From the NCBI RefSeq assembly GCF_003334305.1, contig NZ_QOWS01000014.1: 64,000 bases of DNA. One strand, 5' to 3'. The translations under genes and the position numbers were made by a program. Each line of letters begins with the position of its first letter. Within the stretch, counting starts at the first letter, position 1. The notes under the pieces were generated by a model, which saw nothing but the letters and a program-made list of their open reading frames with translations, searched no databases and was not told the origin of the DNA. Origin of the DNA: Escherichia coli (GTDB lineage Bacteria > Pseudomonadota > Gammaproteobacteria > Enterobacterales > Enterobacteriaceae). This document shows positions 1 through 5,992 of the stretch, one piece after another.

Positions 1-1
1 C

Positions 2-1036
2 GAGCTGCGTCAGGCTCTAGAAGATTCCGTTAAAAGCCATCTGATGTCTGATGTGCCTTACGGTGTGCTGCTTTCTGGTGGTCTGGATTCCTCAATTATT
101 TCCGCTATCACCAAGAAATACGCAGCCCGTCGCGTGGAAGATCAGGAACGCTCTGAAGCCTGGTGGCCGCAGTTACACTCCTTTGCTGTAGGTCTGCCGG
201 GTTCACCGGATCTTAAAGCAGCCCAGGAAGTGGCAAACCATCTGGGCACGGTGCATCACGAAATTCACTTCACTGTACAGGAAGGTCTGGATGCCATCCG
301 CGACGTGATTTACCACATCGAAACTTATGATGTGACCACTATTCGCGCTTCAACACCGATGTATTTAATGTCGCGTAAGATCAAGGCGATGGGCATTAAA
401 ATGGTGCTGTCCGGTGAAGGTTCTGATGAAGTGTTTGGCGGTTATCTTTACTTCCATAAAGCGCCCAACGCTAAAGAACTGCATGAAGAGACGGTGCGTA
501 AACTGCTGGCCCTGCATATGTATGACTGCGCGCGCGCCAACAAAGCGATGTCCGCCTGGGGCGTGGAAGCGCGCGTTCCGTTCCTCGACAAAAAATTCCT
601 TGATGTGGCGATGCGCATTAACCCGCAGGATAAAATGTGCGGTAACAGCAAAATGGAAAAACACATCCTGCGTGAATGTTTTGAGTCATACCTGCCCGCA
701 AGCGTGGCCTGGCGGCAGAAAGAGCAGTTCTCCGATGGCGTCGGTTACAGTTGGATCGACACCCTGAAAGAAGTGGCGGCGCAGCAGGTTTCTGATCAGC
801 AACTGGAAACTGCCCGCTTCCGCTTCCCGTACAACACGCCAACCTCAAAAGAAGCGTATCTGTACCGGGAGATCTTTGAAGAACTGTTCCCGCTTCCGAG
901 CGCCGCTGAGTGCGTGCCTGGCGGTCCTTCCGTCGCGTGTTCTTCCGCTAAAGCGATTGAGTGGGATGAGGCGTTCAAGAAAATGGACGATCCGTCTGGT
1001 CGTGCGGTTGGCGTTCACCAGTCGGCGTATAAGTAA
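2..1036 (+). CDS. asnB: Asparagine synthetase B, C-terminal part (5' end lies outside the window)
   Basis: Frame from position 2 translates ELRQALEDSVKSHLMSDVPYGVLLSGGLDSS..., recognised as AsnB; runs to stop at 1034-1036. Confidence 0.95.
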   Translation, partial: ELRQALEDSVKSHLMSDVPYGVLLSGGLDSSIISAITKKYAARRVEDQERSEAWWPQLHSFAVGLPGSPDLKAAQEVANHLGTVHHEIHFTVQEGLDAIRDVIYHIETYDVTTIRASTPMYLMSRKIKAMGIKMVLSGEGSDEVFGGYLYFHKAPNAKELHEETVRKLLALHMYDCARANKAMSAWGVEARVPFLDKKFLDVAMRINPQDKMCGNSKMEKHILRECFESYLPASVAWRQKEQFSDGVGYSWIDTLKEVAAQQVSDQQLETARFRFPYNTPTSKEAYLYREIFEELFPLPSAAECVPGGPSVACSSAKAIEWDEAFKKMDDPSGRAVGVHQSAYK

Positions 1037-1044
1037 GAAATGCG

Positions 1045-1080
1045 AAACAGCCCCGGTGAAATCCGGGGCTGTTTCAGTTA
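1045..1080 (+). terminator. Putative intrinsic terminator after asnB
   Basis: Inverted repeat acagccccgg / ccggggctgt followed by a T-containing tract. Confidence 0.55.
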
Positions 1081-1347
1081 TTGAGGTGCTTGTTAATTCT
1101 GATATGCAGTAAGGAAATGTTCCGGGTTTGCCACATCACTGTTTGACAACTCATCACTGTAGGCCAGTATTTCATAGATTAATTTCCCACCACTATTGTT
1201 GAATTCCGAATTTCATCCTGTACGACAAAAGAATGGCTGTAGGGTGGGGAAAAAACACAAAGTAAACAATAATTGACGAATATAGCGCCACGCTGTTCGC
1301 AACCTAACCAAACAGTCACTTTCGAGCAATTTTCCTTGAAAAAGAGG

Positions 1348-1384
1348 TTGACGCTGCAAGGCTCTATACGCATAATGCGCCCCG
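1348..1384 (+). promoter_or_regulatory. Putative sigma70 promoter of the tRNA operon, stringent type
   Basis: TTGACG at 1348-1353, 17-nt spacer, CATAAT at 1371-1376, then GC-rich discriminator GCGCCCCGC, about 40 nt upstream of the first tRNA. Confidence 0.55.
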
Positions 1385-1416
1385 CAACGCCGATAAGGTA
1401 TCGCGAAAAAAAAGAT

Positions 1417-1493
1417 GGCTACGTAGCTCAGTTGGTTAGAGCACATCACTCATAATGATGGGGTCACAGGTTCGAATCCCGTCGTAGCCACCA
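1417..1493 (+). tRNA. metT: tRNA-Met (elongator, anticodon CAU)
   Basis: 77 nt GGCTACGTAGCTCAGTTGGTTAGAGCACATCACTCATAATGATGGGGTCACAGGTTCGAATCCCGTCGTAGCCACCA with encoded CCA. Confidence 0.95.
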
Positions 1494-1502
1494 TCTTTTT
1501 TT

Positions 1503-1587
1503 GCGGGAGTGGCGAAATTGGTAGACGCACCAGATTTAGGTTCTGGCGCCGCAAGGTGTGCGAGTTCAAGTCTCGCCTCCCGCACCA
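1503..1587 (+). tRNA. leuW: tRNA-Leu (anticodon UAG)
   Basis: 85 nt GCGGGAGTGGCGAAATTGGTAGACGCACCAGATTTAGGTTCTGG...CGCACCA with long variable arm and encoded CCA. Confidence 0.95.
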
Positions 1588-1610
1588 TTCACCAGAAAGC
1601 GTTGTACGGA

Positions 1611-1685
1611 TGGGGTATCGCCAAGCGGTAAGGCACCGGTTTTTGATACCGGCATTCCCTGGTTCGAATCCAGGTACCCCAGCCA
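1611..1685 (+). tRNA. glnU: tRNA-Gln (anticodon UUG)
   Basis: 75 nt TGGGGTATCGCCAAGCGGTAAGGCACCGGTTTTTGATACCGG...CCCCAGCCA; anticodon loop TTTTGAT. Confidence 0.95.
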
Positions 1686-1700
1686 TCGAAGAAACAATCT

Positions 1701-1777
1701 GGCTACGTAGCTCAGTTGGTTAGAGCACATCACTCATAATGATGGGGTCACAGGTTCGAATCCCGTCGTAGCCACCA
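1701..1777 (+). tRNA. metU: tRNA-Met (elongator, anticodon CAU), second copy
   Basis: Sequence identical to the copy at 1417-1493. Confidence 0.95.
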
Positions 1778-1825
1778 AATTCTGAATGTGTCGAATACGT
1801 TCGGCAAATTCAAAAACCAATTTGT

Positions 1826-1900
1826 TGGGGTATCGCCAAGCGGTAAGGCACCGGATTCTGATTCCGGCATTCCGAGGTTCGAATCCTCGTACCCCAGCCA
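1826..1900 (+). tRNA. glnV: tRNA-Gln (anticodon CUG)
   Basis: 75 nt TGGGGTATCGCCAAGCGGTAAGGCACCGGATTCTGATTCCGG...CCCCAGCCA; anticodon loop ATTCTGATT. Confidence 0.95.
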
Positions 1901-1906
1901 CATTAA

Positions 1907-1938
1907 AAAAGCTCGCTTCGGCGAGCTTTTTGCTTTTC
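1907..1938 (+). terminator. Intrinsic terminator of the tRNA operon
   Basis: Hairpin aaaagctcgc-ttcg-gcgagctttt followed by tgcttttc. Confidence 0.8.
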
Positions 1939-1944
1939 TGCGTT

Positions 1945-2046
1945 CATTCAATGTCGAATGCGATGTTGACACGTTTTATCCTTCAATGTCGGATGCGACG
2001 CTGCCGCGTCTTATCCGACCTACGGTTGGCACGCATCCGGCAATGT
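1945..2046. repeat. REP/BIME-like extragenic palindromic repeats
   Basis: Two copies of ttcaatgtcg(a/g)atgcga plus CGTCTTATCCGACCTACGG, resembling the enterobacterial REP consensus. Confidence 0.5.
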
Positions 2047-2053
2047 TGTAAGG

Positions 2054-3229
2054 CTACAACCCTAACGCATATTTCAGCGCCTGACGTTTCAACACGCCAG
2101 CACGCTCTGCCGCCATTAACCCGAGATTACGCACAAAACGCAGCGGCGGCAGATTATTACTGAATCCGGCATAAAACAGATCCATACCACTTTGCATAAT
2201 GAAGTTATCCGCCATGCGCCGCATCTGGTAACGCTTGAGGACAGGATAACTGGCCCACGCTTCACCGTAGCTGCGGGCATTCACCAGAACATCAATCAGG
2301 GCATCGACATCACGATAACCAAGATTCACCCCCTGCCCCGCCAGCGGATGGATGGTATGCGCGGCATCGCCCACCAGCGCAAGCCCCGGCTGCACATACT
2401 GCAACGCATGTCGGCGCGTCAGCGGAAACGCACCAGCGGCAAGCGGTGTAACGTAACCCAGACGCGACGGGAAATGCTTCGCGATTTCCGCCTGGAGTTG
2501 CGCCATATTCATATTCTGCAACTGGCGAATACGTACCGGAGAGTCATACCACACCAGCGATGCCCAGTTATCAAACAACGGCAGAAACGCACGCGGTCCG
2601 TCCGGGGTAAATTGCTGCCAGGTGCTGTCGCCGGGATCGTTCTCACACTGTACGCTAATCAACATACACGACTGCGCATACTGCCAGGCATGAACGCCAA
2701 TTCCCGCCATCTGCCGCACCTGCGAATTTGCGCCGTCAGCACCAATCACCAGCTTCGCGCGAATCACTTCACCGCCCTTCAGTTCCAGCTCCTGAAGATC
2801 ATTATCTCGATGTAATGCAATCAGCGAGCCTGGCACACGTAACGTTACTTTCGGATGAGCTTCCAGCGCCTGCCACAATGCCTGTTGCAGGACGGTGTTT
2901 TCCACCATATAGCCAAGCAGCGGCAGCTTAAGTTCAGCGGCGTCAAACATCACATGCGCCGTTTCCCACTCCCACGTTTCCAGTCTGCGGTAAGGATGGC
3001 AACGCATAGCCTGTACTGCATCCCAGACCCCTAACCCTTTAAGCAATGATACCGATGCGGCGCTGATCGCCGAGATCCGCACGTCCGGTTGGCTATCAGC
3101 GACAAACGGTGCAGGTTCTGCGTGCTCGATCACCGTTACCGAAAATCCGTGCTGTGCCAGCCCCAGCGCCAGTGCGCCGCCGACCATTCCTCCGCCGACA
3201 ATGGCAATTTCCGTTGGTTGATTTGTCAT
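2054..3229 (-). CDS. ubiF: 2-octaprenyl-3-methyl-6-methoxy-1,4-benzoquinol hydroxylase (FAD-dependent)
   Basis: Track ORF 2054..3235 begins with TTG; the ATG at 3229 gives MTNQPTEIAIVGGGMVGG (FAD-binding GxGxxG), 391 aa. Confidence 0.9.
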   Translation of the reverse strand: MTNQPTEIAIVGGGMVGGALALGLAQHGFSVTVIEHAEPAPFVADSQPDVRISAISAASVSLLKGLGVWDAVQAMRCHPYRRLETWEWETAHVMFDAAELKLPLLGYMVENTVLQQALWQALEAHPKVTLRVPGSLIALHRDNDLQELELKGGEVIRAKLVIGADGANSQVRQMAGIGVHAWQYAQSCMLISVQCENDPGDSTWQQFTPDGPRAFLPLFDNWASLVWYDSPVRIRQLQNMNMAQLQAEIAKHFPSRLGYVTPLAAGAFPLTRRHALQYVQPGLALVGDAAHTIHPLAGQGVNLGYRDVDALIDVLVNARSYGEAWASYPVLKRYQMRRMADNFIMQSGMDLFYAGFSNNLPPLRFVRNLGLMAAERAGVLKRQALKYALGL

Positions 3230-3374
3230 GGTCAATCATCCTGTTAGCAATATGCTTTAAGTTTACAGGATTTTTACCCCCAAGGGCTGATAACGCTCAT
3301 ACTGGTCACAACGGCAGCAAAGCATTACACTATGCGCCCTGCATTCCTGGCTACTATTTCGCAAGAGCAAGTCG

Positions 3375-4799
3375 ATGACCAAAAAACTCCATATTAAAAC
3401 CTGGGGCTGTCAGATGAACGAGTACGATTCATCGAAGATGGCCGATCTGCTGGATGCCACCCACGGCTATCAACTGACCGACGTGGCGGAAGAAGCGGAT
3501 GTGCTGCTGCTGAACACCTGCTCAATCCGCGAGAAGGCTCAGGAAAAAGTCTTCCATCAGTTGGGTCGCTGGAAACTGTTAAAAGAGAAGAATCCAGACC
3601 TGATTATCGGCGTCGGTGGCTGCGTGGCATCGCAAGAAGGCGAGCACATTCGCCAGCGCGCCCACTATGTCGATATTATTTTTGGGCCGCAAACGCTGCA
3701 CCGTCTGCCGGAGATGATCAACTCCGTGCGCGGCGACCGCAGCCCGGTTGTAGATATCAGCTTCCCGGAAATCGAGAAGTTTGACCGTCTACCGGAACCG
3801 CGCGCCGAAGGGCCGACCGCGTTTGTCTCCATCATGGAAGGCTGCAATAAATATTGTACCTACTGCGTGGTGCCTTACACCCGTGGTGAAGAGGTAAGCC
3901 GTCCGTCTGACGATATTCTGTTTGAGATTGCCCAGCTTGCTGCTCAGGGCGTGCGTGAAGTCAACCTGCTCGGTCAGAACGTGAACGCCTGGCGTGGTGA
4001 AAACTACGACGGCACCACCGGATCGTTTGCCGATCTGCTGCGTCTGGTTGCTGCGATCGACGGGATCGATCGTATTCGCTTTACCACCAGCCATCCGATC
4101 GAATTCACCGACGATATCATCGAAGTGTACCGCGACACGCCTGAGCTGGTGAGCTTCCTGCATCTGCCGGTACAAAGCGGTTCCGATCGCATTCTGAACC
4201 TGATGGGCCGTACTCACACGGCGCTGGAGTACAAAGCGATCATCCGTAAACTGCGTGCGGCGCGTCCGGATATTCAGATCAGTTCTGACTTCATTGTTGG
4301 CTTCCCTGGCGAAACCACCGAAGACTTCGAGAAAACGATGAAGCTGATTGCCGACGTCAATTTCGACATGAGCTACAGCTTTATCTTCTCTGCACGTCCG
4401 GGGACGCCCGCCGCCGATATGGTGGATGATGTTCCGGAAGAAGAGAAGAAGCAGCGTCTGTATATTCTGCAAGAGCGCATTAATCAGCAAGCGATGGCGT
4501 GGAGCCGCCGGATGCTCGGCACCACCCAGCGTATTCTGGTAGAAGGGACTTCGCGTAAGAGCATCATGGAGCTTTCCGGGCGTACCGAAAATAACCGCGT
4601 GGTCAACTTCGAGGGCACACCGGATATGATCGGTAAATTCGTCGATGTAGAAATTACCGACGTCTACCCGAACTCTCTGCGCGGTAAAGTGGTGCGTACT
4701 GAAGATGAAATGGGTCTGCGCGTGGCAGAAACACCGGAATCGGTGATTGCCCGTACCCGCAAAGAAAACGACCTTGGCGTGGGTTATTATCAGCCGTAA
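3375..4799 (+). CDS. miaB: tRNA-i6A37 methylthiotransferase (radical SAM)
   Basis: 474 aa; CNKYCTYC radical-SAM cysteine motif; ATG at 3375. Confidence 0.95.
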
Positions 4800-4951
4800 T
4801 TCTCAGGCCCGCCGTTCCGGTGGGCCTTGTTTTTTCTCTCTTTATCCCCATCTTTATCGCAATGCTTGCGCCTTTTTCCTGTGGCGTGAATAATTTCCTT
4901 ATAGGCCGGTGAATGTTCAGCTTCCGGCGACATACAGATAAGAGGAACGGT

Positions 4952-5992
4952 TTGAACATAGACACTCGCGAAATCACCCTGGAGCCAGCAGACAACGCGC
5001 GTCTGTTGAGCCTGTGCGGCCCGTTTGATGACAACATCAAGCAGCTCGAACGCCGTCTCGGCATCGAGATCAATCGCCGCGACAACCACTTTAAACTGAC
5101 CGGCCGTCCGATTTGCGTCACCGCTGCGGCAGACATTCTGCGTAGCCTGTATGTCGATACAGCCCCGATGCGCGGTCAGATTCAGGATATCGAACCGGAA
5201 CAGATCCACCTTGCGATTAAAGAAGCGCGAGTACTGGAGCAAAGTGCGGAGAGCGTGCCGGAGTACGGCAAAGCGGTCAATATCAAAACCAAACGCGGCG
5301 TAATTAAGCCGCGCACGCCAAACCAGGCGCAGTACATCGCCAATATTCTCGACCATGACATTACCTTCGGCGTTGGCCCGGCGGGTACGGGTAAAACCTA
5401 CCTGGCAGTGGCTGCGGCAGTTGATGCCCTGGAGCGTCAGGAGATTCGCCGTATTCTGCTGACTCGTCCGGCGGTCGAAGCCGGTGAGAAACTGGGCTTC
5501 CTGCCTGGCGATTTAAGCCAGAAAGTAGACCCGTATCTGCGCCCGCTGTACGACGCGCTGTTTGAAATGCTGGGCTTTGAGAAAGTTGAGAAACTGATTG
5601 AGCGCAACGTTATTGAAGTCGCGCCGCTGGCCTATATGCGTGGTCGTACGCTGAACGACGCGTTTATCATTCTCGATGAGAGCCAGAACACCACCATCGA
5701 ACAGATGAAGATGTTCCTGACCCGTATCGGTTTTAACTCAAAAGCGGTTATCACCGGCGACGTCACACAGATCGACCTGCCGCGTAATACTAAATCAGGC
5801 TTACGTCACGCCATCGAAGTGCTGGCCGATGTCGAAGAGATCAGCTTTAACTTCTTCCACAGCGAAGACGTGGTTCGTCACCCTGTGGTGGCGCGTATCG
5901 TTAACGCCTATGAAGCCTGGGAAGAAGCCGAACAAAAACGAAAAGCGGCGCTGGCGGCAGAACGCAAGCGCGAAGAACAGGAACAAAAATGA
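4952..5992 (+). CDS. ybeZ: PhoH-like ATPase
   Basis: Walker A GPAGTGKT; probable TTG start at 4952 preceded by AGAGGA (346 aa); track ORF begins at ATG 4913. Confidence 0.85.

Follow-up and report, generated by a model that had tools for sequence, protein, structure and literature searches.

The metT tRNA operon promoter of Escherichia coli: core elements, G/C discriminator, predicted start site and leader

Organization of the metT locus

The window, that is, the whole stretch of 64,000 nucleotides of E. coli DNA that was analysed, carries the asnB / metT tRNA operon / ubiF locus. The 3′ part of asnB occupies positions 1-1036, with its TAA stop ending at 1036, and an intergenic region of 380 nt lies between asnB and five tRNA genes, while ubiF is on the strand opposite to the tRNA operon. 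The operon, called supB-E in the older literature, is listed with all other features in Table 1. When positions 1-5000 were searched against Rfam, the five tRNAs were found and nothing else. Small intergenic open reading frames of 21-78 codons were mutually overlapping and unsupported, and were rejected.

The hairpin after asnB is likely the asnB terminator, which separates asnB transcription from the tRNA operon. The Rho-independent terminator at the other end of the operon has been described in K-12 (PMC2241853). REP-type imperfect repeats (…TGTCGGATGCGACGCTG…CGTCTTATCCGACCTAC…GCATCCGGCA…) were also observed at 1940-2045, between the operon terminator and the 3′ end of ubiF.

Table 1 Features of the asnB-metT-ubiF locus in the window, with the majority-base frequency among 27 aligned sequences where it was computed
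Feature	Position	Strand	Description or basis	Majority-base frequency
Putative asnB terminator hairpin	1043-1076	+	14-pair stem, 9 G-C pairs; identical in K-12	
Far upstream				0.60
Conserved upstream block CTGTTCGCAACCTAACCAAACAGTCAC	1292-1319	.	candidate Fis/activator site	
UP-element-like A/T-rich tract	1325-1346 (-59 to -38)	+	consensus match	
-35 hexamer TTGACG	1348-1353	+	5/6 consensus matches	0.98
Spacer, 17 nt	1354-1370	+	direct reading, consensus scan	0.62
-10 hexamer CATAAT	1371-1376	+	5/6 consensus matches	0.99
Discriminator GCGCCCC	1377-1383	+	7/7 G/C	
9-nt discriminator block	1377-1385			0.93
Candidate transcription start G1384	1384	+	8th nt after the -10 hexamer; K-12 697166, minus strand	
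5′ leader, 33 nt	1384-1416	+	removed by RNase P; predicted hairpin 1384-1404 (GAUAA loop), then A-rich tract	
Leader downstream of discriminator block				0.62
tRNA-Met(CAU)	1417-1493	+	ARAGORN and Rfam	
tRNA-Leu(UAG)	1503-1587	+	ARAGORN and Rfam	
tRNA-Gln(UUG)	1611-1685	+	ARAGORN and Rfam	
Second tRNA-Met(CAU)	1701-1777	+	ARAGORN and Rfam	
tRNA-Gln(CUG)	1826-1900	+	ARAGORN and Rfam	
Operon Rho-independent terminator	1906-1931	+	11-pair stem and T-run; identical in K-12	

Core promoter elements and their conservation

An earlier note on this DNA had described a promoter made up of TTGACG, a 17-nt spacer, CATAAT and the 9-mer GCGCCCCGC, and both direct reading and a consensus scan placed these elements exactly there. 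The hexamers jointly match TTGACA/TATAAT at 10 of 12 positions, which bears out the claim of a near-consensus sigma70 promoter, as does their majority-base frequency of 0.98-0.99. The first tRNA gene begins 40 nt 3′ of the -10 hexamer and all five tRNA genes are co-oriented, and the sequence is that of the K-12 metT promoter, so the assignment to a tRNA operon was also correct. The discriminator has been defined as the region between the -10 hexamer and the start site (PMC8422995). Here it consists of G and C throughout, and together with G1384-C1385 it forms the 9-mer at 1377-1385, a sequence that may alternatively be seen as a mini-hairpin (GCG-CCC-CGC). Its G/C-rich character, likewise claimed in the note, is upheld by its composition, by its conservation (0.93) and by its identity with the discriminator of tyrT.

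For comparison with K-12 MG1655, window position x was converted to NC_000913.3 position 697133 + (1417 - x) on the minus strand. From the A-tract of the promoter through the leader, the window is 100% identical to the region upstream of metT in K-12 MG1655, and from about -140 to the first tRNA the only difference is the length of one G-run near -140. The leader, the terminator and the flanking asnB and ubiF are also the same as at the K-12 metT promoter. The 186-nt promoter region was found at an identity of at least 95% in 5425 of 5426 complete E. coli genomes. In three variant strains that were compared, one of them with 96.6%, the lowest identity among the matches listed, the A-tract, -35 hexamer, spacer, -10 hexamer, discriminator and first 22 leader bases were all unchanged, the differences being confined to the region 5′ of about -55 and to the number of A's in the leader A-run.

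Conservation was then followed beyond E. coli. A scan for the tRNA-Leu(UAG) anticodon arm, with one genome per species, gave 120 loci, 26 of which were kept because they had a Met-Leu(UAG)-Gln operon whose upstream sequence was complete and included a recognisable -10 hexamer; the Photodesmus operon was left out because its -10 hexamer was not recognisable. These 26 orthologues come from Enterobacterales, Pasteurellaceae, Orbaceae and Vibrionaceae and, together with the window, gave an alignment of 27 sequences anchored on the -10 hexamer, from which the majority-base frequency was computed (Table 1). The spacer is 17 nt long in all 27 sequences and variable in sequence. All 27 also have at least five consecutive A's immediately before the -35 hexamer and a C two bases after the -10 hexamer. 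The alignment indicates that strong purifying selection acts on the core elements and the G/C discriminator in four gammaproteobacterial families, and a working promoter that has a working discriminator and a proximal UP subsite would be expected to give this pattern.

Upstream region

Upstream positions are numbered on the assumption that +1 is 1384, which places the -35 hexamer at -36 to -31, as in rrnB P1. The register of the UP-like tract relative to the -35 hexamer is then the same as that of the rrnB P1 UP element. Compared with the UP subsite consensus sequences quoted in PMC4132738, the proximal subsite GAAAAAGAG (1338-1346, -46 to -38) agrees with AAAAAARNR at seven of eight specified positions, and the distal part AGCAATTTTCCTT (1325-1337) agrees with NNAWWWWWTTTTN at seven of ten. 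Contacts between the alpha C-terminal domains of RNA polymerase and the A-tract immediately 5′ of the -35 hexamer are probable.

Further upstream, hardly any base of the block at 1292-1319 differs among E. coli, E. albertii, Citrobacter, Enterobacter and Superficieibacter, whereas the neighbouring bases vary. The block contains a Fis-like 15-mer, GTTCGCAACCTAACC (1295-1309), centred at about -82, whose Fis-consensus score of 11/15 is moderate, being reached by 0.4% of the 15-mers of the window; the centre of the 15-mer contains G/C. In K-12, a Fis site has been placed about 70 nt upstream (PMC9122604). Fis probably binds about 70-85 nt upstream and would thereby activate the metT promoter.

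When a second promoter was sought in the 380-nt intergenic region, no convincing one was found, and none was found on the minus strand. Alternatives on the plus strand of this region were rejected as primary promoters because they had only 8-9 matches of 12 and A/T-rich downstream sequence. A second TTGACG was seen at 1273-1278, followed by AATATAGCGCCACGC (region 1268-1292), which resembles the -10 hexamer and discriminator of rrnB P1 (TATAATGCGCCACC). This stretch is without a properly spaced -35/-10 pair and is conserved within E. coli.

Transcription start and precursor

The start site was approached by homology with tyrT. The leader of the tyrT tRNA-Tyr precursor is 41 nt long. In the K-12 tyrT sequence, 41 nt also lie between the G of the homologous 9-mer and the first base of tRNA-Tyr, and because this spacing matches the known leader length, the tyrT start should be the 8th base after the -10 hexamer. 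Carried over to metT, this homology gives a start at G1384 and a leader of 33 nt. The T7 template designed for the 'native' precursor begins at CGCAACGCC, which corresponds to window position 1383 (Kime et al., PMC3985628). We infer that transcription starts at G1384, possibly at C1383.

Published work on K-12 bears on the same point. The metT operon is one transcription unit in K-12 (Mohanty and Kushner, PMC2241853), and in an rnpA49 strain a metT species of about 125 nt with an unprocessed 5′ end was detected with the METT-UP probe against the 5′ non-coding region, which also hybridised to longer intermediates with intact 5′ ends (PMC2241853). The size of the species of about 125 nt agrees with a leader of about 33 nt and rules out a start far upstream. 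In a different approach, uracil peaks produced by A3A (APOBEC3A) and AID overlapped the metT initiation signals in E. coli, and a hairpin predicted immediately 5′ of the expected start holds the A3A-targeted cytosines in its CCC loop (PMC9122604). This CCC-loop hairpin is the GCG-CCC-CGC discriminator of metT. Both APOBEC3A and AID act on single-stranded DNA (PMC9122604). The published data, with an extended precursor, a single-stranded discriminator and Fis nearby, thus support use of the metT promoter in K-12.

In the mechanism that we propose, RNA polymerase holoenzyme would recognise TTGACG and CATAAT at the optimal spacing of 17 nt, and transcription from G1384 (possibly C1383) would make the 33-nt leader. 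The polycistronic precursor would extend to the 1906-1931 terminator and then be cut into tRNAs by RNase P and RNase E.

Structure of the leader

To describe the leader, 25 distinct leaders running from the predicted +1 to the tRNA were folded, namely those of the window, 23 orthologues and K-12 tyrT. In 22 of the 25, the minimum-free-energy structure was a hairpin whose outermost pair includes +1, with an A-rich tail behind it. Stem sequence varies from clade to clade, and the hairpin was predicted across four bacterial families and in tyrT. Extension of the helix into the untranscribed discriminator amounted to no pair in ten leaders, one pair in ten and two pairs in two. The leader hairpins of Vibrio reached z-scores of -2.6 to -4.0 against shuffled sequences. 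The E. coli leader fold alone was no better than its shuffles (z = -0.9), so the hairpin is worth noting because of the comparison across species and not because of the E. coli fold alone. Since the hairpin boundary falls at +1, it also supports a start at 1383/1384.

Judged from thermodynamic prediction and a few compensatory changes, the leader might be a selected 5′-terminal structure, more than a spacer, a reading that we put forward tentatively and consider rather doubtful. If it is true, the hairpin may shield the triphosphate end from 5′-end-dependent attack by RNase E/RppH, and such shielding would route the precursor to processing by RNase P first; alternatively, the hairpin might tune promoter escape. 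The A-run of the leader (1406-1413) has 6-9 A's among E. coli strains and 5-8 among enteric species.

The leaders of metT and tyrT were seen to share CCGATAAGG, which begins three or four bases after GCGCCCCGC and forms the GAUAA-loop hairpin. This shared motif could reflect common ancestry or a shared function. The sequence GATAAGG also recurs in several Vibrio leaders, at a different offset.

Comparison with the tyrT and rrnB P1 promoters

Two well-known stable-RNA promoters were compared with that of metT. The tyrT promoter is the classic model for discriminator-dependent stringent and supercoiling control. It reads TTTACA-16-TATGAT-GCGCCCCGC-TTCCCGATAAGGG, against TTGACG-17-CATAAT-GCGCCCCGC for metT, so that both have the same nine bases after the -10 hexamer, and the predicted start G's are homologous. 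Its leader, too, begins with a short GAUAA-loop hairpin (the CCGAUAAGG motif), and it is likewise a tRNA operon promoter with Fis sites upstream (PMC8422995). In contrast, the tyrT leader has 41 nt and that of metT 33 nt, and the upstream regions of the two promoters are unrelated.

The rrnB P1 promoter reads TTGTCA-16-TATAAT-GCGCCACC-A. Like metT it has near-consensus hexamers, a discriminator beginning with GCGCC in which C is second after the -10 hexamer, and a stable-RNA product; its A/T-rich UP element, ending one base before the -35 hexamer, and its upstream Fis sites have putative counterparts at metT. Unlike metT it has a 16-nt spacer, an 8-nt discriminator (transcription beginning 9 nt past the -10 hexamer), a full UP element of two subsites and a tandem P2 promoter. 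The metT promoter combines a spacer of 17 nt with a discriminator of 7 nt, and its UP match is good mainly at the proximal subsite.

Discussion

Positions 1348-1383 very probably constitute the sigma-70 promoter of the E. coli metT tRNA operon, a promoter of the stable-RNA type with a G/C discriminator. The metT promoter is an already-described feature that is ordinary for its class, and our analysis adds nothing new to it. Textbooks have covered the operon, its class of promoter and what the G/C discriminator does since the 1980s, and Nakajima et al. 1981/1982 probably tested the metT promoter directly.

Four features of the stringent stable-RNA class, represented by rrn P1 and tyrT, are found at metT. 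Near-consensus hexamers at a spacing of 17 nt, within the 16-18 nt of the class, precede a G/C-rich discriminator, the promoter drives tRNA genes, and C, not G, is second after the -10 hexamer (CATAAT-G-C-G-C). Promoters of this class also start 7-9 nt downstream of the -10 hexamer, a range into which the predicted start at G1384 or C1383 would fall, and are activated from upstream by a UP element and/or Fis, for which metT has candidate sites. Their open complexes are short-lived, and they are inhibited by ppGpp/DksA and in amino-acid starvation. Haugen et al. 2006 reportedly found that a non-optimal C two positions after the -10 hexamer weakens the contact with sigma region 1.2. With its all-G/C sequence GCGCCCC and C two bases after the -10 hexamer, the metT discriminator would be hard to melt and would make poor contact with sigma region 1.2, which would give a short-lived open complex. 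Output from such a complex would be sensitive to ppGpp/DksA, negative supercoiling and growth rate, as at rrnB P1 and tyrT. Rowley et al. 1993 (J Bacteriol 175:1309; cited in PMC5137449) are said to have studied four leucyl-tRNA operons in vivo and probably tested the metT promoter directly. G/C-rich discriminators have been found to correlate with supercoiling sensitivity and stringent control (PMC8422995), and tRNA promoters have been described as a stringently controlled class (PMC5137449). From this class membership we infer, with considerable strength, that the metT promoter would be under stringent (ppGpp/DksA) control. The optimal 17-nt spacer and the 7-nt discriminator imply that the metT open complex may be somewhat more stable, and its ppGpp response weaker, than those of rrn P1. 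At another tRNA promoter, pArgX, DksA can act in opposite directions (PMC5137449), so the regulation of metT cannot simply be copied from rrnB P1.

Whether the match is a real site or a fortuitous one has to be weighed with some care, since a consensus match alone proves little: a generic promoter scan of positions 1-5000 found three promoter-like sites against 3.7 expected from shuffled sequence, that is, no excess. If the match were fortuitous, the operon would be transcribed by read-through from asnB or from weaker matches upstream, and candidates of this kind exist, namely TTGACA-16/17-CAGTAT/AGTATT at 1143-1171 and other upstream matches of 8-9/12. In the 64-kb window, counting both strands, ten sites reach 10/12 and two of them have a 17-nt spacer; when an all-G/C discriminator is added to a score of at least 10/12 and the 17-nt spacer, the metT promoter is the only site. 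Chance is excluded by the position directly upstream of the tRNA cluster and by phylogenetic conservation, the hexamers, spacing and discriminator being kept in four bacterial families while the flanking bases drift. Read-through would have to pass the strong hairpin after asnB, and the unprocessed metT precursor (PMC2241853), at only about 125 nt, is too short for a start lying over 200 nt upstream. Single-stranded DNA was moreover detected in vivo at the metT promoter site itself (PMC9122604). A fortuitous match with transcription from elsewhere is therefore exceedingly improbable.

Taking the promoter as real, two other accounts of its discriminator were considered. The discriminator might mainly sense supercoiling and Fis-dependent growth-phase signals, with direct inhibition by ppGpp/DksA weak or conditional. 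This would agree with the finding that discriminator G/C content sets supercoiling sensitivity independently of ppGpp (PMC8422995), with the link of the metT start region to a Fis site and supercoiling-driven strand opening (PMC9122604), with the stimulation of another tRNA promoter by DksA in some conditions (PMC5137449), and with the optimal 17-nt spacer of metT as against 16 nt in rrnB P1. However, the supercoiling and ppGpp mechanisms are not exclusive, both acting through open-complex stability; the metT discriminator is identical to that of tyrT, a textbook stringent tRNA promoter; and ppGpp-repressed promoters carry G/C-rich discriminators genome-wide (PMC8422995). We consider this account unlikely. 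The other account, in which GCGCCCCGC is conserved for a non-kinetic role, either as a DNA mini-hairpin (GCG-CCC-CGC) or through a leader RNA hairpin serving precursor stability or processing, seems to us very improbable. The GC at 1384-1385 does provide the outer pairs of the leader hairpin predicted in 22 of the 25 distinct leaders, and the CCC is targeted by A3A as a hairpin-loop substrate (PMC9122604), but only the last one or two bases of GCGCCCCGC are predicted to be transcribed, rrnB P1 has the same G/C block after its -10 hexamer and an unrelated leader, and the Vibrio leaders have changed wholly while GCGCNCCG was kept. In tyrT, furthermore, changing four discriminator G/C to A/T alters promoter behaviour by shifting the supercoiling response (PMC8422995). 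The preferred reading for metT would be a strong sigma-70 promoter, helped by the UP-like A-tract and by Fis, with stringent control through a G/C discriminator that destabilises the open complex.

The promoter controls the sole E. coli genes for elongator tRNA-Met, tRNA-Leu(UAG) and both tRNA-Gln species, which makes it a genuine control point coupling tRNA supply to growth. The metT transcription unit is essential, and when transcription units were complemented from plasmids, two needed a stronger replacement promoter, the metT unit not being one of them (PMC11480407).

The genes behind this promoter vary in number. The operon of the window has five tRNA genes against seven in K-12 (metT-leuW-glnU(W)-metU-glnV(X)), with the same promoter; one of the two tandem tRNA-Gln(UUG) genes and one of the two tRNA-Gln(CUG) genes are absent, which is consistent with recombination between identical tandem genes. 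The 1.1-kb stretch was matched in 5425 of 5426 complete E. coli genomes, and the five-gene arrangement was matched in 73 of the 5426, at a query coverage of at least 80%. Some E. coli genomes carry the query spread over about 1120 bp rather than about 690 bp, with a 'hypothetical protein' annotated in the overlapping stretch, which suggests an insertion in or near the asnB-metT region of those strains. Gln copy number was also variable in the orthologous operons of Enterobacter, Photorhabdus and Pantoea.
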